Shown: positions 12 to 43,443 of the stretch, one piece after another
How positions within the stretch are numbered: position 1 is the stretch's first letter
How the letters are laid out: each line of letters begins with the position of its first letter
From: a virus
Lineage: Duplodnaviria; Heunggongvirae; Uroviricota; Caudoviricetes
IMG/VR virus record: IMGVR_UViG_2703718823_000009
Direction: 5' to 3' (one strand)
DNA length: 43,443 bases
The notes under the pieces: model-generated
Told to the model about the DNA's origin: nothing
What the model saw: only the letters and a program-made list of their open reading frames with translations
Database searches by the model: none
Position numbers and translations under genes: made by a program

Positions 12-248
12 TTACTTGACCACTACAGTCCACTGAAATGCACGGACGCCACCGTGCCGTTCCAGAAAGGCTTTTAAAGATGGGTGTTCACATTTACGAA
101 CACGTATCGTCACGCTGTAAGTCGACAACTGGTTATTCAGTCCCGCCGCACGACGCTGTTCATAACCATCGCCCAGCTTCACTGTCACCACTTTCGGCTC
201 TGATACCACATTCATATCCGGGCGCACTTTCCAGTGAAACGTCTCCAT
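12..248 (-). CDS. minor tail protein M-like (lambda gpM N-terminal similarity)
   Basis: Translation METFHWKVRPDM...FGDGYEQRRAAGLN...TYSVT resembles recalled lambda gpM; sits directly downstream of the tape measure gene. Confidence 0.6.
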   Translation of the reverse strand: METFHWKVRPDMNVVSEPKVVTVKLGDGYEQRRAAGLNNQLSTYSVTIRVRKCEHPSLKAFLERHGGVRAFQWTVVVK

Positions 249-3313: not shown

Positions 3314-3614
3314 AACGCACACCTCCGGAAATACCTTCCCCAAGATGCATCAGTTCTTCGTCCGTTCGCTCCGGTATCCCGTTCTCTTCCGGTAAAAGGC
3401 TGAAATCAGCCACCGCAGCATCACTGCTGCCGGACACCATTCTCACGATCAATGCCTTCAGCGAGGCAAACTGCGCATCCATCCACACATCACTGAAGCT
3501 CTGCATCCGGAAATAATCGCCCCACTCACCAAGCTCAGTGGCCGACATTTCCGACAGCATCCGCCGCCAGTCTGCCCGCCGGAACTCCCGGGCAAGCCGC
3601 ATGACAAACTGCAT
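3285..3614 (-). CDS. tail assembly protein T segment (expected G-T frameshift product)
   Basis: ORF in a different frame overlapping the 3' end of the G-like gene, as in lambda G/GT; slippery site not confirmed. Confidence 0.5.
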   Translation of the reverse strand: MQFVMRLAREFRRADWRRMLSEMSATELGEWGDYFRMQSFSDVWMDAQFASLKALIVRMVSGSSDAAVADFSLLPEENGIPERTDEELMHLGEGISGGVRYGPDSQPGH

Positions 3615-8448: not shown

Positions 8449-8461
8449 CCTGAACCAGGAA

Positions 8462-9970
8462 TTATTCTTCGGACTGGTCGTCGGTGTGCTGCGGCTCCTG
8501 TCGTTTCGTTGCGGCACTGCTGCCTCCTTTATCACTGGCCGGATCGGTATCAAATACCAGATCCAGCTTGCGGTTTTCATCAATTTCGGCCTTGCGCCGA
8601 CGTTTGACATCATCCGGATTACGACCACCAGCACGTACCCAGTCTGATTCTGTCGCCGCTCCACCACGAATCTGGATTTTCCAGGCCTCAGCCTCCTTAA
8701 CAGGGTCAATCCACGGCATCACTGGTCCGGAATACACCGCGGTATACAGTGAAGAACGGTCAAGATCGCGGGGTAGCCTGATAACACCGGATGCCACAGC
8801 CTGTTTCAGCCAGGCACGATACATCGGGCGGGTGACGGCACCAATAAACCAGTCCTGCAGGATCAGGTAGCCATCAGTAGACTCAACCAGTTCCTGACGC
8901 TGGGCGCTGTAAGTGCCGTTATAGTTGCGTGCCGTACTGGAAAAACTCAGACGACTGCCCGCCGCCACGGCACGCAACTGACCATTACGAAAAGTTTCAA
9001 GGTTAGGATTGGGACGATCCGACTTCACCATTCCGATTTCTTCGCCGGGTTTCAGATCGTCGTAAATAATGCCTGGCTGAATGGTAAGCTCGCGTTCATT
9101 CTCCTTGCTGTCATTACCATCCGTTTCATAGCTCTGTCCGTCGCCTTTCCGGATGTACATCCCCAGAGCAGCGGCGATCCTTGCTGCAGTCAGCTCAGAA
9201 TCTTCATACTCTTTCAGGGCGCTGAGGCGGATCAGCACACCGGACAATAAAGACGTCCCGCGCATCTGGTGCAGACGGCGAACAAATTTAAGATGCAGCA
9301 TTCGCTCTGCATCCACTTCTTTGGTTTCCATCTGCCGTCCGGATACAGGACGACTTTTATACACCAGATATTTTTCGGGACGCCCCCAGTCATCAACAAA
9401 CACGCCCTGATTCAGCCTGTTGCTCTCATCACTGGTCATGGGAATAAAGTCCGGCTCGAGCGCCTCCAGCCAGAAATGAACACCGGCAGAAGGCGTCAGG
9501 CTGTTTATGCGCCCGGAAACCATCTGGGCAAACACCTCACCATCGCGCAGCCAGGTACGCAGCATCAGACGTTCCAGCATCGGACGGGTAAACTGCCCGG
9601 TGACTTCCGGACTGACAGACCATTCACTCCATCGGGTACGTATCTCCGCTGCCAGGTCACGGGCAATGGCACCATTGCGTAATACCGGATGTGGCTCGAC
9701 AATAATCCCGTTTTTCCCCACCACCCGTTCTTCCAGCTTGTCAAATACACCAATGACCAGATCGTGGTTGTTATCAAGGTAACGGGCCTGCTCACGTAAC
9801 GACACGGCCCCGTACTGGCTTAACTGGTCGGCAGTTCGGTTCTCCCGTCGGGCTTTGTGTGTCCGCGTCGTTTTTACGGCCTCATAAGCTTGGATCACCG
9901 CTCGGGAACGCAGCCTTGCCGCTTTCCATCCTGGTGAAAAAACGCCAATCACATCATCAAGAATTGCCAT
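8462..9970 (-). CDS. portal protein (lambda gpB-like)
   Basis: About 500-aa protein between W-like and capsid genes; ATG at 9970 overlaps the W-like stop (TGATG). Confidence 0.8.
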   Translation of the reverse strand: MAILDDVIGVFSPGWKAARLRSRAVIQAYEAVKTTRTHKARRENRTADQLSQYGAVSLREQARYLDNNHDLVIGVFDKLEERVVGKNGIIVEPHPVLRNGAIARDLAAEIRTRWSEWSVSPEVTGQFTRPMLERLMLRTWLRDGEVFAQMVSGRINSLTPSAGVHFWLEALEPDFIPMTSDESNRLNQGVFVDDWGRPEKYLVYKSRPVSGRQMETKEVDAERMLHLKFVRRLHQMRGTSLLSGVLIRLSALKEYEDSELTAARIAAALGMYIRKGDGQSYETDGNDSKENERELTIQPGIIYDDLKPGEEIGMVKSDRPNPNLETFRNGQLRAVAAGSRLSFSSTARNYNGTYSAQRQELVESTDGYLILQDWFIGAVTRPMYRAWLKQAVASGVIRLPRDLDRSSLYTAVYSGPVMPWIDPVKEAEAWKIQIRGGAATESDWVRAGGRNPDDVKRRRKAEIDENRKLDLVFDTDPASDKGGSSAATKRQEPQHTDDQSEE

Positions 9971-10182
9971 CAGAACCTCGCCAGCCGGTACCCGGGATGC
10001 CCCCGTCGTCGTGTAATCAGAGCCGCAAGGCGGCGCTCCCACTCCTGCCGCCCCTGCCGGATCTCAGATAAGTTTTCCATGGTCATCTGCTGACCATTAA
10101 AAGTGACGGATTTTCCGTCCAGCACTGCCATTTCAGCTTCCGTATAACGCTGAATCATGGCTTCAATATCATTCTGATTCAT
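9970..10182 (-). CDS. head-tail joining protein W-like
   Basis: 70-aa ORF ending ...RRRGHPGYRLARF like recalled lambda gpW; GGAGG 6 nt before ATG at 10182. Confidence 0.6.
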   Translation of the reverse strand: MNQNDIEAMIQRYTEAEMAVLDGKSVTFNGQQMTMENLSEIRQGRQEWERRLAALITRRRGHPGYRLARF

Positions 10183-12281
10183 AACCATCCTCCGGAAGTC
10201 AGCCAGGGGTTAACATCGTCAGTTACTGTTTTCTTCCGTTTTTGTTTTTTAACAGGCGTGGATACCGGTTCCGGTGTGGGTGACGGTTCGGTACTGTCCG
10301 GGACACACTCCAGCCAGGTTTCCCGGCTCGCCCACTCCGGTGCATCCGGCCAGCGGATCTTTTCGTATCCATGCAGAATGACCAGAGCCTCGGCATACAC
10401 CATCAGGTCAAAAGCTTCGTTGGCACCGCGACCCGGCTTACTCCATTTCCCGTCACTGCTCCGCTCTTCATACGTCAGTTCGTCGTAAAACCAGCTCCCC
10501 AGCCAGTCAGGGAAATGCACATAGCCGGGACCTGGCGAGTCACGCCATAACGCGTTATTCACCCGGTCTTTCAGGGCATCCGTCTGAAGAAGCCAGAGCG
10601 GTACATCACCTGCGGCCTGCGCCCGTCGGCCCGTTCGTCCGGTGTTATCAGGGAATGTACGGGTGATCAGTTTTGCGCGCCGGATGCTGTCGCCCTTAAA
10701 CAGGTAAATACGTTTACCAAGGCCATCACGACGGCAACGACGCCAGAATTTATAGGCATTATCAGTGACCCCGTCTTCACCGCCGGAGTCCACCGCCATT
10801 GCCATCAGTCGCATTTGTTGAGAAGGATCGGAGGCCAGCGGCCAGCTTTTATGAAAAACATCCGTCAGCAGGACATCCCAGTCTTCCGGATAGCTGGCCG
10901 GATCAATTCGCTGGCTCTCCCCGTCGCTGTCACCGCGCAATGACTGCGTGATGTTGTAACGATCAATAATCCAGCGTTCGCCACGGCTGCCATAGCCCGT
11001 TACCTGAACCACAAAACGGCGATGACGTCCCGCCTGCACATCCACTGTCGCCACAAGGAAATTAACGCCATCCGGCACACTGCGGGAAGGAACTGGCTCT
11101 GCCCGCTGCTCAAGCAATTCACTTTTTCGTTGCTCCATGCTGGCGCGGGGAAGATAAGGTAATCCCCAGTCGGTATTGATAACCGTCTTGAGTGTCTCTT
11201 CACTTCCGGTTGTCTCGTATTCCTGTTCTGCAGTAAGCAGTTTGTAAACGAGTTGCGAGAGTGTCTGATAAGCAGCTGCCGGCCCCTCCATCCAGAATGA
11301 CGCAATACGTGAACGCCGGGGATCACCATAACGACTGCCATCTGCATTGATGGATTCACCATCCCGTAACCAGACCCCACGTCCGTTCAGCTCGCGTTTT
11401 TGTTCAGGCAAAATCCGTCCTGAACAGGAAGGACACTGAATATAAGCCGCCTCACTTGCCAGCACAGGATCGGCAATATCACGGAAACCAGCAACCACAT
11501 CGCCGCAGGGCTGAAAATACTCACCACAGTGTGGACAGGGCCAGTACCAGCGACGGCGATCGCCACGGTTATAGAGCGACAGGATCCCCGTGGTTGGTGG
11601 AGCCTCATGCGGTGAAGTCCGTCGCCATTTCACATCCTTCACATCCCTGCCGGGGGAACTCTCCACCAGCGTCATACCACTGGACATAAATGTGGTGGTA
11701 CGTTTTGAGGCAAGAGAGAAGGCATCCCCCTCACCATCAATATCTTCCGGAAAACGGTCATAATCCGTCAGCGCCACGCATTTATAATCTGATGAAGACA
11801 TGATATTGACTGACGGCCAGCCGATTTTCAGGTAGTTGCCAGCAAGGAATGTTCTGTCATAAACGTTGTTGTCATTTTTGTTCGGACTCAGGCGACTGAC
11901 CACTTCCGGGCTGACGCGAAACGTTCTGGCGAGTCGTTTTTTGGAGTGTTCGCGGGCTTTTTCCTCCGTCATCTGAATGATCAGCATATCAGCAGGATCG
12001 CAAATCACGTTGTAAATCACCCAGCCGTCAATCAGGCCGATAGTCTTGCCGGTTCGTGCCGGGCCAACAAATATCACTGCGTCGTATTCACGCGAGGCCA
12101 GGCAGTTCATAGGCTCAATAACATACGGTGCCACCAGCGGATCCCACGGGACTGAGTTCCCTGCCCCCATGGGCACCCGCATATACTGAGCAACGGCATC
12201 AGCAACCCGCATTCGTCTCGGTGCGCGAAGGATATAACCTGAATCGGTTCGTGCTGCCTTTGCGGTTTCCTGATTCAGCAT
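10179..12281 (-). CDS. terminase large subunit (gpA-like)
   Basis: 700-aa protein with lambda gpA-like organisation; AGGAGGA RBS; start overlaps TerS stop. Confidence 0.9.
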   Translation of the reverse strand: MLNQETAKAARTDSGYILRAPRRMRVADAVAQYMRVPMGAGNSVPWDPLVAPYVIEPMNCLASREYDAVIFVGPARTGKTIGLIDGWVIYNVICDPADMLIIQMTEEKAREHSKKRLARTFRVSPEVVSRLSPNKNDNNVYDRTFLAGNYLKIGWPSVNIMSSSDYKCVALTDYDRFPEDIDGEGDAFSLASKRTTTFMSSGMTLVESSPGRDVKDVKWRRTSPHEAPPTTGILSLYNRGDRRRWYWPCPHCGEYFQPCGDVVAGFRDIADPVLASEAAYIQCPSCSGRILPEQKRELNGRGVWLRDGESINADGSRYGDPRRSRIASFWMEGPAAAYQTLSQLVYKLLTAEQEYETTGSEETLKTVINTDWGLPYLPRASMEQRKSELLEQRAEPVPSRSVPDGVNFLVATVDVQAGRHRRFVVQVTGYGSRGERWIIDRYNITQSLRGDSDGESQRIDPASYPEDWDVLLTDVFHKSWPLASDPSQQMRLMAMAVDSGGEDGVTDNAYKFWRRCRRDGLGKRIYLFKGDSIRRAKLITRTFPDNTGRTGRRAQAAGDVPLWLLQTDALKDRVNNALWRDSPGPGYVHFPDWLGSWFYDELTYEERSSDGKWSKPGRGANEAFDLMVYAEALVILHGYEKIRWPDAPEWASRETWLECVPDSTEPSPTPEPVSTPVKKQKRKKTVTDDVNPWLTSGGWL

Positions 12282-12775
12282 TACTCCTCCTGCTGTAATT
12301 CCTCCTCATCATCCGCACCTGCTTCAGTCACCCGCAGGGCTATCTGATCGCGCAGATCATCAATAATGGACTGAACACGGCTCACAGCGGCAGGCTGCAG
12401 ACCGCAGTCACGTTCAAGAATATCCGGTAATGTCTCCAGCACCTGCACGACCGCTTTTGCCCAGATGGCAAACTCCCGTCTGACATCACTGGCCGGAATG
12501 AGTTGTGCCGTTTCCTGTTCGAACTTAAGACGCTCACGTTCAGACTGATACCAGGCTTTGCGCTCATGCGCGTCCATTTCGCCTTCTGCAACCGGCGGTG
12601 GTAATGCCAGAAATGCCGACACAATATCAACCACCCGATAAAGCTTGAGGTTGCTTTCATGCCCCCCTGCAACGGGTAGATTTTGCAGCCTTGCCGCAGC
12701 AGTCTGGCGATGTACACCTGACAATGCCGCCAGTTGACTGATATTCAGCGTCAGATTTTTTAACTCTCGATCCAT
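12281..12775 (-). CDS. terminase small subunit (Nu1-like, HTH N-terminus)
   Basis: 164-aa ORF immediately upstream of TerL with an acidic C-terminus; cos-like sequence about 180 nt upstream. Confidence 0.75.
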   Translation of the reverse strand: MDRELKNLTLNISQLAALSGVHRQTAAARLQNLPVAGGHESNLKLYRVVDIVSAFLALPPPVAEGEMDAHERKAWYQSERERLKFEQETAQLIPASDVRREFAIWAKAVVQVLETLPDILERDCGLQPAAVSRVQSIIDDLRDQIALRVTEAGADDEEELQQEE

Positions 12776-24793: not shown

Positions 24794-25295
24794 AATTCCA
24801 TCCAGCTTTTTGTTGGTATTGCTGTCGATACGCAAGTTTGAAAGCAATTGCTTTTTCTATAAGTTCGTCAGTTTCACGATCCACTACGGCAGGATCAGCA
24901 AAAAGCAGTCCGGACTCCACCACATCGCCATATTCTTTGTTTAACCCGGCGATCATGTACGTGATGCTTTTTCCGTCACTAATTTCACGATACAACCTGA
25001 AATCATTAATCCGGATAGCCTCCATAATTGCAGGCACTAGCGCCGTGAACTTTTCACGCTTATCCCTGGTGTCGATAGCCTTCCAGCGTTCGAATATCTT
25101 CACTCGATTAACGCCAAGCGCTCGCTGATCAACCGCGCCACCTTCATCTGTGACACGCTGAACATCGATGTTCGGGCGCTCTTTCAAAGCCCAGAATGCT
25201 TCAGTGATTAATATCGTCGCCTGCTCCTGTGTCATTCCTGGTCGACATATCCAGGCATCCAGAGCCTCACGAGCCTGTTCAGGAGTGATTTTCAT
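24774..25295 (-). CDS. hypothetical regulator in cII position (possibly YdaT-like)
   Basis: 173-aa ORF immediately downstream of dicC-like cro; family uncertain. Confidence 0.4.
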   Translation of the reverse strand: MKITPEQAREALDAWICRPGMTQEQATILITEAFWALKERPNIDVQRVTDEGGAVDQRALGVNRVKIFERWKAIDTRDKREKFTALVPAIMEAIRINDFRLYREISDGKSITYMIAGLNKEYGDVVESGLLFADPAVVDRETDELIEKAIAFKLAYRQQYQQKAGWNYEPSFC

Positions 25296-27872: not shown

Positions 27873-30344
27873 ATGAGTAAAGTCTTTATTTGCGCCGCTA
27901 TTCCTGACGAACTGGCAACAAGGGAAGAAGGCGCTGTGGCTGTAGCCACAGCCATTGAAGCTGGCGACGAACGCCGTGCTCGAGCAAAATTTCACTGGCA
28001 ATTCCTGGAACATTATCCGGCTGCTCAGGACTGCGCTTATAAATTTATTGTCTGCGAGGATAAACCTGGCATACCCCGCCCTGCCCTCGATTCATGGGAT
28101 GCTGAATATATGCAGGAAAACCGCTGGGATGAGGAGTCTGCTTCTTTTGTCCCGGTTGAGACTGAATCCGATCCGATGAACGTCACTTTTGACAAGCTGG
28201 CCCCTGAAGTACAGAACGCTGTCATGGTTAAGTTCGACACATGTGAAAACATCACCGTTGATATGGTTATTAGCGCACAGGAATTGTTGCAGGAAGACAT
28301 GGCAACATTCGACGGACATATCGTTGAAGCGTTGATGAAAATGCCAGAAGTTAACGCCATGTATCCGGAGCTTAAGTTGCACGCCATTGGGTGGGTTAAG
28401 CATAAATGTATTCCTGGTGCTAAATGGCCCGAAATTCAGGCAGAGATGCGCATCTGGAAAAAACGTCGCGAAGGTGAACGCAAGGAAACCGGAAAATACA
28501 CGTCTGTTGTTGATCTCGCCCGCGCCAGAGCCAATCAACAGTACACTGAAAATTCAACAGGAAAAATCAGCCCGGTCATTGCTGCCATTCATCGCGAATA
28601 CAAGCAGACATGGAAAACACTGGATGACGAACTGGCCTACGCTCTCTGGCCTGGTGATGTGGATGCCGGAAACATTGACGGCAGCATCCATCGCTGGGCA
28701 AAAAAAGAAGTTATCGACAACGACCGCGAAGACTGGAAGCGTATCTCGGCATCAATGCGCAAACAGCCTGATGCCCTTCGCTACGACCGCCAAACTATTT
28801 TTGGCCTTGTCCGTGAGCGTCCGATCGACATTCACAAAGATCCCGTAGCACTGAACAAATATATCTGCGAATACCTGACGACAAAGGGCGTGTTTGAGAA
28901 TGAAGAAACAGACCTGGGCACTGTTGATGTTCTCCAGTCATCAGAAACACAAACTGATGCAGTGGAAACTGAGGTATCTGATATCCCAAAAAATGAAACC
29001 GCGCCGGAAGCTGAACCATCTGTAGAGCGTGAGGGGCCGTTCTATTTCCTCTTCGCAGATAAGGACGGAGAAAAATACGGTCGCGCAAACAAACTTTCTG
29101 GTCTGGATAAGGCACTGGCTGCTGGCGCCACTGAAATCACAAAAGAAGAATATTTTGCCCGAAAAAATGGCACATACACGGGCTTACCGCAAAATGTAGA
29201 TACCGCTGAAGATTCAGAACAACCAGAGCCGATAAAAGTTACCGCTGACGAAGTAAACAAAATTATGCAGGCAGCCAATATCAGCCAGCCTGACGCCGAT
29301 AAGTTGCTTGCTGCATCACGTGGTGAATTTGTTGAAGGGATTAGTGACCCGAATGATCCGAAATGGGTTAAGGGGATCCAGACCCGCGATTCTGTGAACC
29401 AGAACCAGCATGAATCGGAACGGAACTACCAAAAAGCGGAACAAAACAGTCCAAATGCGTTACAAAACGAGCCAGAAACGAAACAGCCTGAACCAGTGGC
29501 GCAACAGGAAGTGGAAAAGGTCTGCACCGCCTGCGGTCAGACCGGCGGCGGCAACTGCCCTGATTGTGGCGCGGTGATGGGCGACGCAACATACCAAGAA
29601 ACATTCGATGAAGAGTATCAGGTTGAAGTTCAGGAAGATGATCCGGAGGAAATGGAAGGCGCTGAACATCCACACAAGGAGAACACTGGCGGCAATCAGC
29701 ATCACAATAGCGATAATGAAACTGGCGAGACGGCAGATCACCCAATTAAGGTGAACGGTCATCACGAAATCACATCCACCAGCAGGACGTGTGACCATCT
29801 AATGATCGACCTTGAAACCATGGGAAAAAATCCTGATGCCCCGATCATCTCAATAGGTGCAATATTTTTCGATCCGCAAACCGGAGATATGGGACCGGAA
29901 TTTAGTAAGACTATCGATCTGGAAACTGCTGGCGGAGTCATTGATCGGGACACCATTAAATGGTGGCTTAAGCAATCACGCGAAGCGCAATCTGCCATTA
30001 TGACCGATGAAATCCCGTTAGATGATGCACTGTTACAATTGCGGGAATTTATCGACGAAAACTCCGGTGAATTTTTTGTTCAGGTTTGGGGAAATGGAGC
30101 CAACTTCGACAACACGATTTTGCGCCGTTCATATGAACGGCAGGGGATCCCCTGCCCGTGGCGTTACTACAACGATCGCGATGTACGCACAATCGTTGAG
30201 CTGGGGAAAGCCATAGACTTCGATGCCAGAACGGCTATTCCATTCGAAGGTGAGCGCCATAATGCACTTGATGACGCCCGTTACCAGGCAAAATACGTTT
30301 CAGTTATCTGGCAAAAACTGATCCCGAGTCAGGCTGATTCTTAA
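27873..30344 (+). CDS. prophage exonuclease: YdfE-like N-terminal region fused to a DEDDh (DnaQ-like) 3'-5' exonuclease domain
   Basis: 823-aa uninterrupted ORF; C-terminus carries DLETMG, WGNGANFD and HNALDDARYQ motifs; ydfE position before xis-int. Confidence 0.7.
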   Translation: MSKVFICAAIPDELATREEGAVAVATAIEAGDERRARAKFHWQFLEHYPAAQDCAYKFIVCEDKPGIPRPALDSWDAEYMQENRWDEESASFVPVETESDPMNVTFDKLAPEVQNAVMVKFDTCENITVDMVISAQELLQEDMATFDGHIVEALMKMPEVNAMYPELKLHAIGWVKHKCIPGAKWPEIQAEMRIWKKRREGERKETGKYTSVVDLARARANQQYTENSTGKISPVIAAIHREYKQTWKTLDDELAYALWPGDVDAGNIDGSIHRWAKKEVIDNDREDWKRISASMRKQPDALRYDRQTIFGLVRERPIDIHKDPVALNKYICEYLTTKGVFENEETDLGTVDVLQSSETQTDAVETEVSDIPKNETAPEAEPSVEREGPFYFLFADKDGEKYGRANKLSGLDKALAAGATEITKEEYFARKNGTYTGLPQNVDTAEDSEQPEPIKVTADEVNKIMQAANISQPDADKLLAASRGEFVEGISDPNDPKWVKGIQTRDSVNQNQHESERNYQKAEQNSPNALQNEPETKQPEPVAQQEVEKVCTACGQTGGGNCPDCGAVMGDATYQETFDEEYQVEVQEDDPEEMEGAEHPHKENTGGNQHHNSDNETGETADHPIKVNGHHEITSTSRTCDHLMIDLETMGKNPDAPIISIGAIFFDPQTGDMGPEFSKTIDLETAGGVIDRDTIKWWLKQSREAQSAIMTDEIPLDDALLQLREFIDENSGEFFVQVWGNGANFDNTILRRSYERQGIPCPWRYYNDRDVRTIVELGKAIDFDARTAIPFEGERHNALDDARYQAKYVSVIWQKLIPSQADS

Positions 30345-30668: not shown

Positions 30669-30702
30669 CTAAAAGCCACACTAACTAATGAGAGAAGTTG
30701 AA

Positions 30703-31983
30703 ATGAAATATCCGACAGGCGTGGAAAACCATGGAGGGAAATTACGTATCTGGTTTGTTTATAAAGGCGTAAGAGTCAGGGAAAATCTGGGGGTTCCTGA
30801 CACAGCAAAAAACAGGCGCGTTGCAGGTGAACTACGCTCCTCTGTTTGTTACGCAATAAAAACTGGTGTTTTCGACTATGCAAAACAGTTTCCCTCCTCA
30901 CGCAATCTGGAAAAATTTGGTGAGGCCCGACAAGATTTAACCATAAAAGAACTGGCTGAAAAATTTCTGGCACTGAAAGAAACTGAAGTCGCCAAAACAT
31001 CACTCAACACATACCGTGCCGTCATCAAAAATATCCTGAGCATAATCGGTGAAAAAAATCTTGCCTCATCGATTAATAAAGAAAAATTACTGGAGGTTCG
31101 TAAAGAGCTACTGACTGGATACCAGATCCCCAAAAGTAACTATATTGTTACACAACCAGGGAGATCGGCTGTAACTGTAAATAATTACATGACAAATCTT
31201 AACGCCGTGTTCCAGTTTGGTGTTGATAACGGTTACCTGGCAGATAATCCGTTTAAGGGGATCTCGCCATTAAAGGAATCAAGAACCATTCCGGATCCTC
31301 TTTCGCGGGAGGAATTTATCCGTCTTATCGATGCGTGCAGAAATCAGCAAGCAAAAAATTTATGGTGTGTTTCTGTTTATACTGGCGTTCGCCCTGGTGA
31401 GCTGTGTGCACTTGGATGGGAGGACATAGATCTGAAAAATGGAACAATGATGATCAGGAGAAATTTAGCAAAAGACCGTTTCACGGTACCAAAAACACAG
31501 GCGGGAACCAATCGGGCCATTCATCTTATTAAGCCAGCAATCGACGCTCTCCGGAGTCAGATGACATTAACGAGACTGAGCAAAGAGCATATCATTGATG
31601 TTCACCTCAGAGAGTATGGCAGAACAGAAAAACAAAAATGCACCTTTGTTTTTCAACCTGAAGTGTCAGCGAGAGTAAAAAATTATGGTGACCATTTTAC
31701 CGTTGACTCAATAAGGCAGATGTGGGACGCAGCGATAAAACGTGCCGGACTCCGCCATCGAAAATCATATCAGTCGAGACATACTTATGCCTGCTGGTCG
31801 CTGACAGCTGGTGCTAACCCGGCATTTATAGCAAACCAGATGGGCCATGCAGATGCGCAAATGGTATTTCAGGTATACGGAAAATGGATGTCTGAAAACA
31901 ATAATGCACAGGTAGCTTTGTTAAATACACAGTTAAGCGAGTTTGCCCCAACCATGCCCCATAACGAATCAATGAAAAATTAA
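30703..31983 (+). CDS. tyrosine integrase (IntQ-like, apparently intact)
   Basis: About 426-aa ORF with tyrosine-recombinase C-terminal region (...HRKSYQSRHTYACW...); last prophage gene before rspB; alternative ATG at 30688. Confidence 0.85.
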   Translation: MKYPTGVENHGGKLRIWFVYKGVRVRENLGVPDTAKNRRVAGELRSSVCYAIKTGVFDYAKQFPSSRNLEKFGEARQDLTIKELAEKFLALKETEVAKTSLNTYRAVIKNILSIIGEKNLASSINKEKLLEVRKELLTGYQIPKSNYIVTQPGRSAVTVNNYMTNLNAVFQFGVDNGYLADNPFKGISPLKESRTIPDPLSREEFIRLIDACRNQQAKNLWCVSVYTGVRPGELCALGWEDIDLKNGTMMIRRNLAKDRFTVPKTQAGTNRAIHLIKPAIDALRSQMTLTRLSKEHIIDVHLREYGRTEKQKCTFVFQPEVSARVKNYGDHFTVDSIRQMWDAAIKRAGLRHRKSYQSRHTYACWSLTAGANPAFIANQMGHADAQMVFQVYGKWMSENNNAQVALLNTQLSEFAPTMPHNESMKN

Positions 31984-37343: not shown

Positions 37344-38754
37344 ATGTCCAAAAATGACCGAATGGTGGGCATCAGCCGCAGAACACTCGTTAAATCAACC
37401 GCGATAGGTTCTCTGGCGCTGGCTGCAGGCGGTTTTTCTTTACCGTTCACCCTGCGCAGTGCAGCGGCAGCGGTACAACAGGCCAGCGAAAAAGTGATCT
37501 GGGGTGCCTGTTCCGTCAACTGTGGTAGCCGCTGTGCACTTCGTCTACATGTTAAAGATAATGAAGTCACCTGGGTGGAAACTGACAACACCGGCAGCGA
37601 CGAGTATGGCAATCATCAAGTACGCGCCTGTTTGCGTGGTCGATCCATCCGTCGGCGTATTAATCATCCCGATCGCTTGAATTACCCAATGAAACGCGTG
37701 GGCAAACGCGGCGAAGGCAAATTCGAACGGATTAGCTGGGATGAAGCCCTGGATACTATCGCCAGTAGCCTGAAGAAAACCGTCGAACAATATGGCAATG
37801 AGGCTGTATATATTCAGTACTCTTCGGGGATCGTTGGCGGCAATATGACCCGCTCTTCGCCATCAGCCTCGGCGGTCAAACGCCTGATGAACTGCTACGG
37901 CGGTTCACTCAATCAGTATGGCTCCTACAGCACCGCGCAAATTTCCTGTGCCATGCCCTACACCTACGGCAGTAATGATGGCAACAGCACCACGGATATT
38001 GAAAACAGCAAGCTGGTCGTGATGTTTGGTAACAACCCGGCAGAAACCCGCATGAGCGGCGGTGGCATCACTTATCTTCTTGAAAAAGCGCGCGAGAAAT
38101 CGAACGCCAAAATGATTGCTATCGATCCGCGATATACCGATACGGCTGCTGGTCGTGAAGATGAATGGCTCCCTATTCGCCCGGGCACCGATGCCGCGCT
38201 GGTTGCGGGTATTGCCTGGGTATTGATTAACGAAAATCTCGTTGATCAACCTTTTCTCGATAAATACTGCGTCGGCTATGACGAAAAAACCTTACCCGCA
38301 GATGCACCCAAAAATAGTCACTATAAAGCCTATATTCTTGGTGAAGGTGATGATAACACAGCGAAAACGCCGCAGTGGGCTTCGCAAATTACCGGTATCC
38401 CGGTAGACCGTATCATCAAACTGGCGCGTGAAATTGGCACAGCAAAACCCGCTTATATCTGCCAGGGCTGGGGGCCGCAACGCCAGGCAAACGGCGAACT
38501 GACTGCACGCGCTATTGCTATGTTACCTATTTTGACGGGCAATGTCGGCATCAGCGGCGGAAATAGTGGCGCGCGTGAATCGACCTATACCATTACCATA
38601 GAACGCCTGCCGGTGCTGGATAATCCGGTCAAAATGTCAATCTCCTGCTTCAGCTGGACAGATGCTATCGATCATGGTCCGCAAATGACGGCAATCCGCG
38701 ACGGCGTCCGCGGCAAAGATAAACTGGATGTGCCCATTAAGTTCATCTGGAACT
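37344..38754 (+). pseudogene. ynfE: ynfE (Tat-exported molybdoenzyme) truncated after about 470 codons by insertion of foreign DNA
   Basis: Twin-arginine signal MSKNDRMVGISRRTLVK and DmsA-like sequence through ...PIKFIWN; the frame then runs 15 unrelated codons into the insert to a stop at 38801; full-length YnfE is about 800 aa (recalled). Confidence 0.8.
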
Positions 38755-38810: not shown

Positions 38811-38843
38811 TTTGTGTCAGGCTTTGTGTCAGCCTTGTGTCAT
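38811..38843. repeat. short tandem repeat TTTGTGTCAG(G/C)C x3 near the element terminus
   Basis: ACTTTGTGTCAGGC TTTGTGTCAGCC TTGTGTCATT read directly. Confidence 0.6.
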
Positions 38844-38995
38844 TAGACGGGATGTCTAGACGGCTGGTCAGGACCCCGGTGGCCTCGGTCTGGACTTGAG
38901 GCGGGGCTATGGGGGAGAAGTCTGCTGGCTTAATGTATTAGATGGTCATTCACATTTTTCTGTCAGAAACCATCGGTCCCACTGTGAGTCCAAAC

Positions 38996-39204: not shown

Positions 39205-39229
39205 GGTCCAGACCATTGGTCCAGACCAT
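39205..39229. repeat. tandem repeat GGTCCAGACCAT x2
   Basis: GGTCCAGACCATTGGTCCAGACCAT read directly. Confidence 0.6.
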
Positions 39230-39389
39230 AGTTATCATGATGATTGGAACGATTGAACGGTAGGCACTTTACGTCTCACCCACTGTTCAGCTTCAGCCAG
39301 TGACCAGCATAGCCGCTTATAGACTCTGCGTGTCATCCAGATTGTTGCTTGATATCGTCCACCCTCCACAGGCTGTATAGATGTCTTAA

Positions 39390-39629
39390 TCACAGTGACA
39401 GGCCACCACCTGAAGTCCTGCTGATATTCAGTCCAGACTTACCTCTGCTCATGGTCTTACCTCCCTCGGTCTCCTGACCTTGGGTATCGACTACAGCTTG
39501 CTGAGCGTCATCTGGAGGAGCTACAGGAGGAGCTACAGGAGGCGGGACCGAAGCCCCACCTTGAGTCCCACCACCACCTGTCAGGCCCTTGGCGATGGAC
39601 CTGAAGCCTTTACTAATGCTCTTACCCAT
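39390..39629 (-). CDS. Gly/Pro-rich small protein (79 aa), low complexity
   Basis: ORF with internal PPVAPPVAPP repeat from a 12-bp tandem DNA repeat; no clear RBS. Confidence 0.3.
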   Translation of the reverse strand: MGKSISKGFRSIAKGLTGGGGTQGGASVPPPVAPPVAPPDDAQQAVVDTQGQETEGGKTMSRGKSGLNISRTSGGGLSL

Positions 39630-39634
39630 TGGTC

Positions 39635-40621
39635 TTACGCTTCGGTCTTGGTGAACTTCAGGCGTTTGACTACAGGCAGGACGGCAGTAGCTGAGCCAGT
39701 GCCCATCTTGATGGTCGTAGCAGCTTCAGCGACAACGTACACTTTACCGAGGATTTCCAAGTCGTGGGACTGAGAGTCGCCATCACGTGAAAGGACGACC
39801 GTAATATTCTCGCCATCGTGACGGAAGCAACCGAAGCTCAGAGCCGTGAAGCGTTTAGCCAGCATGAATACACCCTTGTCTTCACCGTTGTAGTAGGCGA
39901 TGTCTGTTCCCAGCATATCGACGATAGCGTCTTCACCGGAGAAGCCTTGCTTAGCAGCCAGACGGGACAGTGCTTTCAGTTGGCTCTCATGAGCGATAAT
40001 ACCGTAGTTAGACACCTCAGAACCGAAAGAAGGCTCTGTGTTCTCATACAGAGCGTCCATGATAGCGTCTGCCTTAGCGGTCAGGCTACCAGTCAGGACA
40101 GGAAGCTCTACGGTCTTCAGCAGCTTAGAGGATTCCAGAACGTCGACCATGTGAGCGTTGATGGTACGGACCACATTCTCACAGATGTTCATAGCGTCCT
40201 GCTGAAGTGTGCCCTGAGTGAATCCGGTGGATGACTTGGCGTCCCAGAGAGTGGTCTGCTCAGAGATGAGAATAGCCTGCTCGATTGGTTCGACCACGAT
40301 TTCTTGTCCAGACGGAATGGTCACGACTTCAGGTCGCTTGCCACCACGGACAGGAACGACCACAGAGCGGTCAGCCAGAGTGTGGGCAATGATTGGGGTC
40401 GGTAAGCTGTTACGGGTCGGCAGGACTTCTACAGGGAACGGGATGTTCTCTTGAGCGTCCTTAAGTACACCGTTCAGCATAGCCTTAACCGTCTTAGCTA
40501 ACTGGAGGGCGTAGACCTGCGGGTCAGCGTTAGTCGGCAGACCTTCATTGACCTGAATGTTGTCGGTATCGGTGATGCGTACTGGCTCAATGCCAAACTG
40601 GAAAGCGTCTTTAATCGTCAT
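39635..40621 (-). CDS. hypothetical protein (328 aa), largest gene of the cassette
   Basis: ATG at 40621 with TAGGAGA RBS 9 nt upstream; no family recognised by eye. Confidence 0.55.
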   Translation of the reverse strand: MTIKDAFQFGIEPVRITDTDNIQVNEGLPTNADPQVYALQLAKTVKAMLNGVLKDAQENIPFPVEVLPTRNSLPTPIIAHTLADRSVVVPVRGGKRPEVVTIPSGQEIVVEPIEQAILISEQTTLWDAKSSTGFTQGTLQQDAMNICENVVRTINAHMVDVLESSKLLKTVELPVLTGSLTAKADAIMDALYENTEPSFGSEVSNYGIIAHESQLKALSRLAAKQGFSGEDAIVDMLGTDIAYYNGEDKGVFMLAKRFTALSFGCFRHDGENITVVLSRDGDSQSHDLEILGKVYVVAEAATTIKMGTGSATAVLPVVKRLKFTKTEA

Positions 40622-40705
40622 AATAATCAATCTCCTAAATTAGTTTAAATACTGTGAGTCCTCAAAACTGAGGAGTCCCTAACATCGGGTCAGGGACTGT
40701 GTGTC

Positions 40706-41197
40706 TTATAAGCTGTCCAGCCAGTTACCGCCTGACTCAAGGTCAGCGACAATAGCGGCACGGGAGCGACCAGCGGAATGGGTTGCACTGCGGAGGTTCT
40801 CACCATAGGTCCGGCGTTCAGCTTTGACTTGTTCGCGGCGCTGTAGCTCTTTCTGCCACTCTGCATCGGTCATGTTCTCTTCACGCATACGCTCTTTCTG
40901 AGATGCCAGCTCTTTAGCGATACGCTCAGCCTCAGCTCGTTTGTTAAGCTGGCGGCGACCATAGGCGGTCATCAGGTCATTACTGAAGAAGTTGCCAATA
41001 GCTACGCCAGCTTCAGCCAGAGCTTCCAGTAACTCCATTGCCTCGCGGCTGGTAGACGGCAGGCCTGACAGGTAGCCCGGAATGAGGGTCTTGATAGCGA
41101 GCGACAGCGGATAGGGCTGACCGTCCAGACTCACAGTGTTTTCATAAAGGTTGATGTCGGTGACTGACAGCTTCCAGTTGTTGTTGTTGAACATCAT
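40706..41197 (-). CDS. hypothetical protein (163 aa) with charged helical C-terminal half
   Basis: ATGATG start with AGAGGAG RBS; C-terminus ...AERIAKELASQKERMREENMTDAEWQKELQRREQVKAERR... Confidence 0.5.
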   Translation of the reverse strand: MMFNNNNWKLSVTDINLYENTVSLDGQPYPLSLAIKTLIPGYLSGLPSTSREAMELLEALAEAGVAIGNFFSNDLMTAYGRRQLNKRAEAERIAKELASQKERMREENMTDAEWQKELQRREQVKAERRTYGENLRSATHSAGRSRAAIVADLESGGNWLDSL

Positions 41198-41293: not shown

Positions 41294-41461
41294 TTAGGCA
41301 GACAGTTTCATAGCGACCAGTTGCGCTATCAGCTCGTCTCGGGATTGGTGCTGGCGGGTCTCATCTTCCGGGTCTAGACCAAGCTCTCTGAGGAGGACTT
41401 CAGTCCGGTAGCCACGGTAACGGAGAGTCATGCGGCCCTCAGGTGTGCGTGGGTCAATCAT
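41294..41461 (-). CDS. small translationally coupled ORF (55 aa)
   Basis: ATG 1 nt after the KilA-N gene stop, preceded by AAGGGAGG; MIDPRTPEGRMTLRYRGYRTEVLLRELGLDPEDETRQHQSRDELIAQLVAMKLSA. Confidence 0.3.
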   Translation of the reverse strand: MIDPRTPEGRMTLRYRGYRTEVLLRELGLDPEDETRQHQSRDELIAQLVAMKLSA

Positions 41462-41462
41462 C

Positions 41463-42221
41463 TTAGAGTCCTCCCTTAGCGCACAGACGAACCAGCTCGA
41501 CCTTGTTGGACTTAAGCCACTCGTAACCCTTGGTGAGGACCTTAAGCCCCTCCTGACCGTTATAGTGGTTATCCTGAAGACGGTAATAGCCGTTCTCCAG
41601 ACCCTTAGGATTGAAGCTGGTCATCCAGCCACCTGACGAGATGTCAAATACAGGCTGTCCTCGACCGTCCAGCTTGCGACTATAGAAGGGATTAGCTATA
41701 CGCCCTGACTTCAATACGGCATTAAGAGCCTTGGCTGATACCAGCTTTGTACCTAACCTGAAGTCGAGATTCTTAAGACACTCTGTCAGGGTGTGGCCCT
41801 GCTTCGGGTTATCCAGCTTTTCCAGCCAGTTACGGGCTATAGGCTTGAGACCCTTAAGTTCCTTGGAGTCCTGCGCCAGCGCCTTAGCTTCCGACACTTT
41901 GTCGTTACGTAAAGCGATGAAAGCACGGATGACCTTAAGGTAGAAATCAGGTGAGACCCACATCGCATAGGCAATAGCCGCCTCTTCAGTAGCCCATGTC
42001 CCCGGAGTCGAACCACCATGAGCAACATGCAAATTTGCATCTTGGTCAAGAAGCGTCCTGACGCTAGAACGCCACTGACCCGGCTCCTTAGCAGATGGAA
42101 GCTCAAGCTCTTTATGTAGCTCGTTCAGGTTCCACATACGGTCCTGATTACAGGCCCAGTGATAGCCGTCAACGATGACAGGAAGAACTACTTCATGCTT
42201 CATTAAGGGTTGAGTTGACAT
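41463..42221 (-). CDS. KilA-N domain protein (possible antirepressor/regulator)
   Basis: N-terminal ...GTWATEEAAIAYAMWVSPDFYLKVIRAF... matches the KilA-N signature as recalled; AAGGAG RBS 9 nt before ATG. Confidence 0.6.
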   Translation of the reverse strand: MSTQPLMKHEVVLPVIVDGYHWACNQDRMWNLNELHKELELPSAKEPGQWRSSVRTLLDQDANLHVAHGGSTPGTWATEEAAIAYAMWVSPDFYLKVIRAFIALRNDKVSEAKALAQDSKELKGLKPIARNWLEKLDNPKQGHTLTECLKNLDFRLGTKLVSAKALNAVLKSGRIANPFYSRKLDGRGQPVFDISSGGWMTSFNPKGLENGYYRLQDNHYNGQEGLKVLTKGYEWLKSNKVELVRLCAKGGL

Positions 42222-42568
42222 ATCGTTGTACTCCTTTTGTTATGCCTCCTGAAGTCACACCCTGAAAGCCTACTCAAGCCCCCAACGATAGGGAGACTCA
42301 CAGGCAACAGGAGACATACAGAAAGACTTGAGGTAATAAGGTCGTGTGAAGACCATGTTAACTTTTTCCTACTGGCTACTAGATAACTAGCGTGTCTCCA
42401 TATGTATAAAGGCGGGACCGCATGTCAGGACGAGCTGTAAGGACTTCCAGATGGTGAGCGGTGATAAACTTAAGCCAATGAGTAGTGAGTAGACGAGCTA
42501 CTAACAGATGACTGAAGAACGCTAACGAGCTGGAGGTCATACAGGAGGTCTGACAGAGGCGGAAGCAG

Positions 42569-42591
42569 GTCTCCTATAGTGATAGTTTAGG
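42569..42591 (-). promoter_or_regulatory. phage single-subunit RNAP promoter-like motif P2
   Basis: Minus strand CCTAAACTATCACTATA|GGAGAC (-17 to +6); compare SP6 ATTTAGGTGACACTATAGAAG and T7 TAATACGACTCACTATAGGGAGA. Confidence 0.5.
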
Positions 42592-42596
42592 GTCTG

Positions 42597-42619
42597 GTCC
42601 CCTATAGTGAGTGCTTATT
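42597..42619 (-). promoter_or_regulatory. phage single-subunit RNAP promoter-like motif P1
   Basis: Minus strand AATAAGCACTCACTATA|GGGGAC; positions -10 to +3 identical to T7 consensus (ACTCACTATAGGG), -11/-12 differ. Confidence 0.5.
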
Positions 42620-43082
42620 CCATCATCCCTTTATCACAGAGCACCTTCTTCATGTTCACAGAGGTAGCCTGAAGTACAGAGTTAACGTGGCGTAGGTAGC
42701 GAGGAGACGGGGAGCGACCCGTGATTGCCGTGTAGGAGATGTCAGTATTGCGGGAGAAGATATCGTTGGTGCCATATAAGGCAGCGAACAGGTAGGCCTT
42801 GGAGACCGGGAGTCCCACGCTGTTAGAGAGACCTGAAGGACGTGAGAGTCCTGTAAACACATCGTCTGCCCATGGGTAGGCCTCAGCAAGCTGCGTATAG
42901 GAGAGACACCCAGTCTCAATCAGCCACAGCCTCACAGACCGATTGTCGATGACCACAGGCGGCTTACCTGTACGGGCCTTAGGTTCATCATAGGTCGGCG
43001 CTGGTAGCTGCTCATGGTCGAGGTCTCCACCGAAGAAGGCCTCATTGTCGGACTCTGAGTAGCATTGAATTGTAATAGCCAT
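42615..43082 (-). CDS. hypothetical protein (155 aa), first gene of the minus-strand cassette
   Basis: ATG at 43082 with AGAGGAGG RBS 7 nt upstream; P3 motif 80 nt upstream. Confidence 0.5.
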   Translation of the reverse strand: MAITIQCYSESDNEAFFGGDLDHEQLPAPTYDEPKARTGKPPVVIDNRSVRLWLIETGCLSYTQLAEAYPWADDVFTGLSRPSGLSNSVGLPVSKAYLFAALYGTNDIFSRNTDISYTAITGRSPSPRYLRHVNSVLQATSVNMKKVLCDKGMME

Positions 43083-43156: not shown

Positions 43157-43179
43157 CTCTCCTAGGGTGATAGTTAAGG
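43157..43179 (-). promoter_or_regulatory. phage single-subunit RNAP promoter-like motif P3
   Basis: Minus strand CCTTAACTATCACCCTA|GGAGAG; shares an extended 28-bp match with P2. Confidence 0.4.
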
Positions 43180-43237: not shown

Positions 43238-43324
43238 AAGTTGGAGGGACCTGAGTTTAGGACGCAGTTTAAATAAGACACCAAGTTGGAGGACCTGAGT
43301 TTAGGGTGCAGTTTAAATAAGACC
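43238..43324. repeat. tandem direct repeat, 2 units of about 44 bp (iteron-like)
   Basis: AAGTTGGAGGGACCTGAGTTTAGGACGCAGTTTAAATAAGACACC followed by AAGTTGGAGGACCTGAGTTTAGGGTGCAGTTTAAATAAGACCAC. Confidence 0.7.
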
Positions 43325-43386
43325 ACAGACAGACTTAGAGTCGGACAGCCGAAGGCGAACCAGTGGGCCTATAGTCAGGAGGGATT

Positions 43387-43443
43387 ATGATTATTATCAC
43401 CCTCCATAACTTCAGTCGTAAGCGACTCGTCAGAACCGTATTG
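43387..43443 (+). CDS. start of a divergent plus-strand gene (partial)
   Basis: AGGAGGG RBS 3-4 nt before ATG at 43387; MIIITLHNFSRKRLVRTV... open to window end. Confidence 0.3.
   Translation, partial: MIIITLHNFSRKRLVRTVL

Follow-up and report, generated by a model that had tools for sequence, protein, structure and literature searches.

The window analysed here is a 43,443-nucleotide stretch of Caudoviricetes DNA (IMG/VR record IMGVR_UViG_2703718823_000009) that carries on its minus strand a string of six genes: a KilA-N gene, a 55-aa ORF, two genes for proteins of 163 and 328 aa, a homologue of T7 gene 7.3 and a 52-aa ORF. The string starts downstream of two tandem promoter-like sites and stops at a terminator-like hairpin. 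The two central genes, at 41197..40706 (163 aa, 18.4 kDa) and 40621..39635 (328 aa, 35.4 kDa), do lie where the earlier note had placed them, while their strand, minus, was absent from it. For the larger gene the automated ORF call starts further upstream, at the TTG of position 40630 (331 aa), but the better predicted start is the ATG at 40621, because a TAGGAGA box sits ~10 nt upstream of it and homologues begin at the same place. The 163-aa gene is preceded by the box AGAGGAG. Both are good ribosome-binding sites, yet they are not the strongest in the element, as had been claimed, since the boxes of three other ORFs of 155 aa (AAGAGGAGG), 51 aa (GAAGGAGG) and 55 aa (AAGGGAGGA) equal or surpass them. 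The two genes are more than chance ORFs: both have homologues, they are adjacent in every related locus examined, and the 328-aa protein is modelled with confidence. They are separated by a structured spacer of 84 nt (40622..40705, minus strand; dG -22.7 kcal/mol, z -2.5) with two hairpins, the first of which (40698..40674) is terminator-like and followed by CCTCAGTTTT.

Only 5 nt past the stop codon of the 328-aa gene begins a 79-aa ORF (39390..39629, minus strand) that matches PHROG_1320 (1.8e-11). In BLASTP it aligned over its full length with gp7.3 of Kayfunavirus ZG49 (38 % identity, E 7e-16) and also with T7 gp7.3 (E 4e-6); it has the C-terminal SRTSGGG motif of the gp7.3 family, and scored 17.6 bits against Pfam VirionAssem_T7, below the 25-bit threshold. 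T7 gp7.3 is a virion protein required for adsorption and infectivity. The last ORF of the operon (39235..39393, minus strand; 52 aa, basic) matched no family, and RNA folding predicts behind it a hairpin with a T-run (GGTCTGGACCAATGGTCTGGACC TTTGTTTTGT; 39205..39227, minus strand) that probably ends the operon. At the other end, the first gene downstream of the tandem promoter-like sites encodes a 252-aa KilA-N domain protein (41463..42221, minus strand; Pfam KilA-N 1.3e-9, PHROG_129 1.5e-17), likely a DNA-binding regulator. Between it and the pair lies the called ORF of 55 aa (41294..41461, minus strand), whose slot is taken in related islands by small ORFs of 56-63 aa. Further upstream, the 155-aa ORF (42615..43082, minus strand) matched no family, and what stands in its slot differs from one related island to the next, with a 122-aa gene in locus L035, a 202-aa gene in L041 and L056, and a 217-aa DUF4145 gene in L055.

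The earlier note had considered the second protein of the pair capsid-sized and possibly a capsid protein, and had named the lack of an HK97-like fold as a possible refutation; when predicted structures were compared (AF2, Foldseek), an HK97 fold was found. The AF2 model of the 328-aa protein, built on a deep alignment with distant homologues from an exhaustive HMMER search, reached a pLDDT of 85.4 and a pTM of 0.79; a model from a shallow alignment (12 sequences, at least 70 % identity) had a pLDDT of 48 and was discarded. With the deep model, Foldseek returned 228 PDB and 209 BFVD matches at E <= 1e-3, and those listed were all of capsid, head or encapsulin type wherever they were named. The model has the canonical HK97 elements, namely the N-arm, the E-loop hairpin, a P-domain with a long spine helix and long beta strands, and the A-domain; at the level of predicted structure, a complete HK97 capsid fold is thus shown. 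Neither a delta domain nor a protease is present, and only ~33 low-confidence residues stand ahead of the first modelled helix.

At the sequence level the lineage is divergent. The 328-aa protein had no match in Pfam, PHROGs or NCBIfam, phmmer and profile searches of PDB sequences gave nothing meaningful for either protein of the pair, and tblastn of 50,697 phage records and genomes yielded no match for the pair. The family comprises 66 representative homologues, down to 21 % identity. Among 37 of its members, no capsid domain matched Pfam or PHROGs and only the Ig-like domain of a single member did; one distant homologue has a C-terminal Big_2 Ig domain, a type of domain common on virion surface proteins. 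Comparison of the family profiles with T7 gp10A, the ZG49 capsid protein and the ZG49 scaffold (hhalign) gave probabilities of 0.2 % or less, which bears out the earlier impression that neither protein matches T7 gp9 or gp10. The protein could also, like an encapsulin, form a portal-less nanocompartment around protein cargo instead of DNA. We give this reading very little credence: no cargo enzyme or recognisable cargo gene adjoins, the neighbours being the gp7.3 homologue, the KilA-N gene and an integrase gene, the expression signals are phage-polymerase promoters (see below), and all homologues reside in integrase islands, none in metabolic operons.

The 163-aa protein (40706..41197, minus strand) consists of an N-terminal DUF6971-like domain (residues ~1-80) and a charged segment (residues 81-140), with a K/R/D/E content of 10-20 % and 40-55 %, respectively. 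The charged C-terminus that had been described is therefore real as regards residues 81-140, but does not extend to the extreme C-terminus; the segment is probably helical. The protein had no match in Pfam, PHROGs, NCBIfam or PADLOC, and against Pfam DUF6971 itself (PF22318; gathering threshold 27 bits) none at E <= 0.1. Weak precomputed DUF6971 matches exist for some of its close homologues. When its family profile was aligned with a bona fide DUF6971 protein (the 138-aa protein of locus L036; Pfam 6.3e-41), hhalign returned a probability of 96.7 % (E 3.3e-10, residues 17-130), and this profile comparison places the 163-aa protein among the distant relatives of DUF6971. Pentatricopeptide-repeat matches in the PDB were traced to a repetitive designed protein and rejected. 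The family is large, with more than 120 homologue clusters, and the small proteins encoded upstream of the capsid-like gene align as homologues across islands. In all ten independent contexts examined (L006, L008, L009, L035, L036, L038, L040, L041, L055, L056), a homologue of the 163-aa gene was found directly upstream of the capsid-like gene. We infer from the upstream position, the charged, probably helical segment and the strict co-occurrence with the capsid-like gene that the 163-aa protein putatively serves the 328-aa protein as a scaffold or as a partner in assembly. In keeping with a scaffold, its gene lies immediately upstream in the same predicted transcript, and the capsid-like protein brings no delta domain of its own.

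The operon is part of an island inserted into E. coli ynfE. Nucleotides 1-1411 of K-12 ynfE align up to position 38754 of the window, where an att core (CATCTGGAACT; 38744..38754, plus strand) marks the junction; the island starts at 38755 and continues past the window end. It is complete in strain UMNK88, where 6,571 bp lie between two ynfE halves that overlap by 15 nt (the att duplication). The UMNK88 island encodes a tyrosine integrase, the 155-aa, KilA-N, 55-aa, 163-aa and 328-aa proteins, the gp7.3 homologue and two small ORFs, and in Pfam and PHROGs searches no portal, protease, terminase, connector or tail gene was found in it. The island occupies ynfE in ~20 of 5,426 E. coli genomes, UMNK88 and ECONIH5 among them, and relatives of 80-98 % identity are found in Shigella, Leclercia, Buttiauxella, Citrobacter and Enterobacter; one Shigella genome holds two copies at two sites. 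More distant homologues (21-42 % identity) all fall within similar 5-7-kb integrase islands, many of which have phage-type promoters of their own. The same compact architecture of 5-7 kb, its ORFs intact, is seen at protein identities from 98 % to as low as 21 %, across many genera and several integration sites.

This recurrence argues for a selected design and not for decay, and it bears on whether the island is the decayed remnant of an integrated T7-like prophage (a temperate member of the Autographiviridae) that kept its scaffold, capsid and gp7.3 genes. Such an origin would account for the combination of T7-type promoters, a gp7.3 homologue and an integrase in one island. Yet the order of genes here is scaffold-like, capsid, 7.3, with no portal gene, whereas that of T7 is 7.3, 8, 9, 10, and the sequences of the capsid-like and scaffold-like proteins bear no relation to those of the T7 group. 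We consider a remnant highly improbable.

Several sequence signals connect the island with T7-like phages. Using a Kayfunavirus promoter consensus derived from ZG49 and K1F, we located three phage-RNA-polymerase promoter-like sites in the window, where 0.19 would be expected; each of them lies on the island's coding strand. Two are arranged in tandem (42570..42610, minus strand), with cores TCACTATAGGGGA (42610..42598) and TCACTATAGGAGA (42582..42570), and the second, together with its upstream bases (CTAAACTATCACTATAGGAGACC), has a perfect 23-nt match in the promoter that precedes the capsid gene of ZG49. The third (CCTTAACTATCACCCTAGGAGA; 43158..43170, minus strand) lies upstream of the 155-aa ORF. 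Across nine related loci there were 23 promoter matches, all of them on the coding strand and upstream of the capsid gene, and 0 on the other strand. As a side observation, a statistically weak one, an ATCTGTT pause-like motif occurs at 42503-42509, with a chance expectation of ~0.3 in the 4.7 kb searched.

Besides, a 28-bp hairpin (GGAGGGTGATAATAATCATAATCCCTCC; 43378..43405, minus strand; dG -14.8 kcal/mol, z -3.7) has a copy in UMNK88 that is identical at 28/28 positions to a Kayfunavirus element (local blastn E 7e-8), which in those phages lies close to the right end of the genome, flanked by a phiOR-like promoter and gene 19.5. The hairpin is present in five island copies and in ~12 phage contigs of 39-40.5 kb; the K1F variant contains a compensatory stem change. 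The motif CCCCATAGCCCCGCCTCAAGTCCAGACC (38887..38914, minus strand) matches K1F and ZG49 at 24/28 positions and is similar to nt 27-54 of the direct terminal repeat of K1F, a similarity that is statistically weak when taken alone (E 0.32). Variants occupy the same place in loci L044 and L045, the latter matching K1F at 25/28 positions, and the motif may mimic the end of the helper's genome. The lambdoid prophage that fills the window from 1 to ~32,000 was considered as a helper and rejected, because the promoters of the island, its gp7.3 homologue and its hairpin agree in indicating the Autographiviridae.

In an alternative reading, the pair is purely a module of interference or defence. Made under phage promoters, it might only poison head assembly of the infecting phage or sequester its portal, scaffold or terminase, with the island itself staying unpackaged. 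Expression linked to a phage polymerase would suit this reading, as would a weak match of the KilA-N protein to the PADLOC candidate family PDC-S22 (5.9e-7) and the fact that blocking of helpers is common among satellites and islands. Besides, no free, island-sized (encapsidated) form was found in IMG/VR, where contigs bearing the island are all long (18-73 kb). Circular or concatemeric island contigs were likewise not found, including among the Logan contigs of 6.4-7.8 kb, and these island-sized contigs turned out to be integrated copies, bounded by short stretches of chromosome or by att repeats. On the other hand, the pair itself had no PADLOC match, and a pure poison would need neither a gp7.3 homologue nor a genome-end hairpin nor a terminal-repeat-like motif. 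Near-identical islands in six genera, and at two sites in one genome, furthermore argue for efficient horizontal transfer. On balance, we think it unlikely that the pair serves interference only.

Rather, we lean somewhat towards the pair being the capsid module of a ~6.6-kb integrative satellite that parasitises T7-like phages of the virulent K1F/Kayfunavirus type. That the island itself makes its own capsid, as the earlier note had surmised, is plausible. Because portal, protease, terminase and connectors are absent from the island, all of them would be borrowed from the T7-like helper. Upon helper infection, the helper's own RNA polymerase would transcribe the operon, and the 163-aa protein may then help the 328-aa protein to assemble, either as a scaffold inside the shell or as a chaperone. 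The 328-aa protein would form a satellite-specific, smaller shell (T=3 or 4 expected) on a portal and core that come from the helper. With its promoter/origin-like and terminal-repeat-like sequences, the island might be amplified and packaged by the replication proteins and terminase of the helper, and helper tail parts together with the island's gp7.3 copy could complete an infectious particle. The diversion of helper parts would lower helper yield and might thereby protect the host population. Since the island lacks a portal gene, a DNA-filled shell would require a foreign portal to work with an unrelated capsid protein and scaffold; to our knowledge, such co-assembly is unprecedented where these proteins have no detectable sequence similarity to those of the helper. 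In a broader version, to which we assign a little less than an even chance, the islands would form a widespread, undescribed family of 5-7-kb satellites of virulent Autographiviridae that combine a DUF6971-type scaffold with a divergent HK97 capsid, build a small shell of their own on a portal and tail stolen from the helper, and are switched on directly by the helper polymerase, with tandem promoters of differing specificity opening them to several helper lineages.

In the literature searched, we found no published description of the island or of a natural satellite of the T7 group. If our interpretation holds, no known capsid-encoding satellite would be smaller than the island, and in the literature searched it would be the first satellite described for the T7 group in E. 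coli; two genes would suffice to specify a capsid in a 6.6-kb element, and the helper polymerase would serve as the induction signal. The idea of capsid-forming satellites would be widened to strictly lytic phages, and a minimal, genetically tractable system would be at hand for studying the nucleation of an HK97 shell on a foreign portal and the control of capsid size. Few phages are as well understood as T7 and K1F, and both are mainstays of biotechnology and phage therapy. In E. coli, Shigella, Citrobacter and Enterobacter, satellites of this kind could account for part of the natural resistance to therapeutic phages of the T7-like type, or for some of the transduction by them. Besides, a likely role would emerge for Pfam DUF6971 and for a capsid lineage so far annotated as 'hypothetical protein'.

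Among known systems, the cf-PICIs (e.g. EcCI2; Alqurainy et al. 2023) reportedly span 10-15 kb, exploit temperate helpers from which they take only tails, and encode a portal, a protease or scaffold, connectors and a small terminase. Like the island, they possess an HK97-fold major capsid protein of their own (EcCI2, capsid structure 9gyi). The island, however, measures 6.6 kb, its structural genes are limited to those for the capsid-like protein, its partner and the gp7.3 homologue, and its cis signals suggest virulent T7-like phages as helpers; as genes for portal, protease, terminase and connectors are absent, it is not of the cf-PICI type. Another known system is Ccm of SaPIbov5 (7rwz), reportedly a capsid-protein paralogue that redirects capsid size and is related to the capsid protein of its helper. 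By analogy, the 328-aa protein might, aided by the 163-aa protein, co-assemble with helper gp10 and force small capsids made mostly of helper protein. One-lattice co-assembly is most plausible between related capsid proteins, but no similarity of the 328-aa protein to gp10 of ZG49 or T7 was detectable, a comparison that assumes that the helper type has been correctly identified. Moreover, Ccm acts with the helper capsid protein, whereas the island protein has a dedicated, co-evolving partner, which suggests self-contained assembly. We thus doubt that the protein is a Ccm-like factor. Genes 9 (scaffold) and 10 (major capsid) of T7 stand in the same order as the pair, whose small, probably helical protein is likewise followed by a capsid protein of the same fold class, yet T7 gp9 has 294-307 aa as opposed to the 163 aa of the island partner, and the pair has no sequence similarity to gp9 or gp10.

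Helper-dependent satellites with encapsidation genes of their own are also described in Streptomyces (MiniFlayer and Mulch; PMC10690885); they belong to another host phylum and another helper type. The PICMIs (phage-inducible chromosomal minimalist islands) of Vibrionaceae (PMC10803314) are likewise minimalist integrative satellites of ~5-7 kb that depend on virulent phages for nearly everything. They are reported to lack capsid-remodelling genes and have their DNA packaged as a concatemer, whereas the island has a capsid-like gene and matches to promoters of single-subunit phage RNA polymerases. Finally, T7 replicates, packages and transduces plasmids that bear only a T7 origin, a pac site and a terminal repeat, as stated in PMC13236587 (citing Chung & Hinkle 1990), and the promoter, hairpin and repeat-like signals of the island parallel these three elements.

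Both open reading frames that the earlier note had claimed were recovered on the minus strand, the 163-aa gene at 41197..40706 and the 328-aa gene at 40621..39635, separated by an 84-nt spacer that is structured (RNA fold). The 328-aa gene starts at the ATG at 40621, which has a TAGGAGA box ∼10 nt upstream and also fits the N-termini of the homologues. While the two genes were initially credited with the strongest ribosome binding sites of the element, we find good Shine-Dalgarno boxes on both, yet three other ORFs of the element are at least as strong in this respect. A terminator-like hairpin lies at the end of the operon (39227..39205, minus strand).

Pfam, PHROGs, NCBIfam and PADLOC offer no family for the 328-aa protein, PDB sequences include no relative, and tblastn against 50,697 phage genomes matched nothing. 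A word-indexed protein search returned only relatives of at least 70% identity, all from Enterobacterales, and AlphaFold run on this shallow alignment reached a pLDDT of 48. When 1.84 billion representatives were searched exhaustively with a profile, 66 proteins were matched, among them ∼30 full-length homologues (21–42% identity), and with distant homologues in the alignment the model attained a pLDDT of 85.4 and a pTM of 0.79. Its topology is that of the HK97 capsid fold, with an N-arm helix (residues 34–54), hairpin strands (77–102), a long strand (107–126), a spine helix (136–163), an alpha/beta A-domain (169–255) and P-domain strands (260–325). Foldseek yielded 228 matches in the PDB and 209 in BFVD at E ≤ 1e-3; the best 50 of the former are all capsid or encapsulin shell proteins, and the best 50 of the latter, where named, all capsid or head proteins. 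The capsid-fold part of the original guess, which hinged on an HK97 fold being present, is thus supported. Sequence identity to the fold matches listed is ≤14% throughout, so the protein is predicted to belong to a divergent HK97-fold capsid lineage that lacks a close structural neighbour. A distant homologue ends in a Big_2 Ig-like domain, of a kind that often decorates virion surface proteins. That the 328-aa protein is an encapsulin is unlikely, given both its neighbouring genes and its expression signals.

The 163-aa protein has no significant Pfam match of its own, and its homologues form >120 clusters in Enterobacterales. Directly upstream of the distant capsid homologues lie genes for small proteins that can be aligned with it and have the same architecture. 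Of these, one scores strongly as DUF6971 (6.3e-41), and the 163-aa family profile matches it over residues 17–130 (probability 96.7%, E 3.3e-10); the 163-aa protein therefore appears, by profile comparison, to be a distant member of this uncharacterised family. We infer that it scaffolds the capsid-like protein. This reading draws on the order of the two genes, which is the scaffold-then-capsid order of T7 genes 9 and 10, on the capsid-like protein having neither a delta domain nor a protease, on the strict co-occurrence of the 163-aa family with the capsid-like gene, and on a charged segment in the smaller protein. The latter had been described as a charged C-terminus: the segment is real, yet lies centrally to C-terminally rather than at the very end, with 40–55% K/R/D/E in residues 81–140 and a first half low in charge. 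The 163-aa protein is not similar to gp9 of either T7 or ZG49 (ZG49 and K1F being T7-like Kayfunavirus phages), nor did we find a sequence relation of the 328-aa protein to gp10, in agreement with the earlier note, which matched neither protein to T7 gp9 or gp10.

The window is E. coli chromosome, and the pair resides in a small island interrupting ynfE, since this gene begins at 37344 of the window, its K-12 match stops at 38754, and the remainder resumes 6,571 bp further on in E. coli UMNK88, after a 15-nt overlap with the core CATCTGGAACT. The window ends within the island, short of the integrase. In UMNK88, the island encodes, in order of transcription, a 540-aa tyrosine integrase, a 155-aa ORF, a 252-aa KilA-N protein, a 55-aa ORF, the 163-aa and 328-aa genes, and ORFs of 79, 52 and 51 aa, the last hydrophobic. 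It occupies the ynfE site in only ∼20 of 5,426 complete E. coli genomes, the others having ynfE intact. In the RefSeq records H1, H2, H6, H14, H15, H16, H19 and H22, IS66 or IS3 insertions break several copies, and an ORF under the island match is labelled ‘peptidase M16 family protein’ in some genomes, which may be a misannotation, and ‘DUF6971 family protein’ in one. Adjoining the att site, TTGTGTCA occurs three times (38812–38842). A 44-bp unit (TCTTATTTAAACTGC...CTAAACTCAGGTCC), present as two tandem copies in the window (43247–43322, minus strand) and singly in UMNK88, is placed between the hairpin and the third promoter described below, a position that makes an origin or protein-binding role possible. 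A separate lambdoid prophage (1 to ∼32,000), ∼7 kb from the island and unrelated to it, encodes a tape measure protein (248–3343), a protease/capsid fusion (6490–8709), portal (8462–10042), large (10179–12281) and small (12281–12775) terminase, exonuclease (27873–30344) and integrase (30688–31983).

Four features of the island appear to link it to T7-group phages, specifically to the K1F genus. Three phage-polymerase promoter cores lie on the coding (minus) strand (42610..42598, 42582..42570 and a third at 43170..43158), against 0.19 expected by chance. Scanning ZG49 and K1F gave the Kayfunavirus consensus CCTAAACTATCACTATAGGA; ahead of its capsid gene, ZG49 has a promoter that shares a 23-nt stretch (CTAAACTATCACTATAGGAGACC) without mismatch with the island site at 42582. 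In a non-coding stretch some 70 nt past the tandem promoters, ATCTGTT (42503–42509, minus strand) has the sequence of the T7 RNA polymerase class II pause/termination core; a 7-mer of this kind should arise ∼0.3 times by chance over the 4.7 kb scanned. Starting 5 nt past the capsid-like stop codon, the 79-aa ORF (39390–39629, minus strand) is homologous along its entire length to gp7.3, which in T7 is a virion protein involved in adsorption and needed for infectivity (PHROG_1320, 1.8e-11; ZG49 gp7.3, 38% identity, E 7e-16; T7 gp7.3 matches more weakly). The UMNK88 copy is unannotated in RefSeq. Between the integrase and 155-aa genes sits a stably folding (z −3.7) 28-bp hairpin (43378–43405, minus strand; also at 24839–24866 in locus L001), which in UMNK88 equals the ZG49 element at 28/28 positions and in the window is one base off. 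About a dozen phage contigs of 39–40.5 kb carry it. In Kayfunavirus genomes the element is conserved, non-coding and situated close to the right end. K1F has it with a compensatory stem change, ∼120 nt beyond its rightmost promoter and ahead of gene 19.5. A role in packaging or processing, or as an RNA element, is conceivable. Near the att end, a motif at 38887–38914 (minus strand) resembles nt 27–54 of the K1F direct terminal repeat and recurs in at least two related islands, one matching K1F at 25/28. It may mimic the helper genome end, although it is weak on its own. Assigning the helper to the K1F genus rests on the promoter, gp7.3 and hairpin similarities.

All homologue contexts examined are small integrase islands that lack portal, terminase and tail genes and place a small DUF6971-like gene just ahead of the capsid-like one. 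Sizes in aa are: L006/L007, in ynfE of another enterobacterium, integrase 444, 161, 63, 165, capsid-like 354; L036, integrase 484, 154, 236, 101, 63, DUF6971 138, capsid-like 398; L038/L039, Bro-N 205, 279, 185, capsid-like 347, integrase; L040, integrase 429, 254, 155, capsid-like 332; and L041/L043, integrase 456, 202, KilA-N 252, 63, 163, capsid-like 328 (71% identical to that of the window). L008 combines an integrase, nucleases, a T7 gp0.4-like domain, an Ant-like regulator, a 135-aa protein and a 527-aa capsid-like protein with an Ig-like domain. L035, L055 and L056 share the L041/L043 plan, except that the gene following the integrase varies. In the window this slot is taken by the 155-aa ORF (42615–43082, minus strand), and in L035, L041, L055 and L056 by a gene of 122 aa, one of 202 aa or one for a DUF4145 protein of 217 aa; it seems to accommodate accessory or cargo genes, perhaps ones for defence. 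That the island is a prophage remnant is unlikely: its gene order differs, its capsid lineage is unrelated and its compact architecture recurs. Relatives at 80–98% identity in Shigella flexneri, Leclercia, Buttiauxella, Citrobacter and Enterobacter argue for horizontal movement. S. flexneri SFBU1023 (CP182556.1) has two islands at different sites (L044, L050), whose capsid-like proteins are 98% and 92% identical to the window's.

Phage-type promoters precede the capsid gene on the coding strand of many related islands (including L008, L035, L041 and L044–L056); nine loci have 23 such sites on that strand and none on the opposite one. Specificity regions vary among islands, L008 having four copies of TTAATTCCTACCACTATAGGGAGA, and several islands carry tandem CCCTCAC-type and ACTATCAC-type pairs, which suggests adaptation to different, or several, helper polymerases. 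Tandem promoters of unlike specificity may broaden the helper range.

The analysis thus shows a conserved gene pair, with an HK97 fold in its larger protein, inside an integrative island that has phage-type promoters, a gp7.3 homologue and a hairpin shared with phages. We propose a satellite cycle, of which every functional step that goes further than fold, homology and motifs is inferred. A T7-like helper's RNA polymerase would transcribe the operon; with the 163-aa protein as chaperone, the 328-aa protein would assemble into a shell specific to the satellite, built on the portal and core of the helper; amplification and packaging of the island would fall to the helper's replication proteins and terminase; and helper tail proteins, with the island's gp7.3 copy, would complete the particle, helper yield dropping as a side effect. 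It is possible that the 328-aa protein instead co-assembles with helper gp10 in a Ccm-like manner, against which stand its lack of sequence relation to gp10 and the presence of a dedicated partner. A pure interference or decoy module against the helper is less likely than the satellite cycle and leaves the gp7.3 copy, the genome-end-like signals and the wide horizontal spread unexplained. Plasmids with only a T7 origin, pac site and terminal repeat are known to be replicated, packaged and transduced by T7 (PMC13236587, citing Chung & Hinkle 1990). By analogy, a small island carrying such signals could plausibly be mobilised by a T7-like phage. The 6.6-kb island is, by rough arithmetic, about one-sixth of the helper genome. 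T7 packs 40 kb into a T=7 capsid, and if capacity scales with T^1.5, there would be room for ∼9–12 kb in a T=3 shell and for ∼2 kb in a T=1 shell, so that an island monomer would fit a T=3 or T=4 but not a T=1 shell. Under-filling should be tolerable, since T7-type packaging cuts at defined sites. Among IMG/VR contigs and island-sized Logan contigs, excised, circular or encapsidated forms were not found.

The literature searched, with subscription journals partly covered, contained no published description of the island or the pair. The island is not a cf-PICI, as it lacks the portal, protease, connectors and small terminase of these elements, nor a PICMI, from which its capsid gene sets it apart. 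Rather, it looks like a minimal capsid-encoding phage satellite with a two-gene head module, tied to virulent T7-like helpers.
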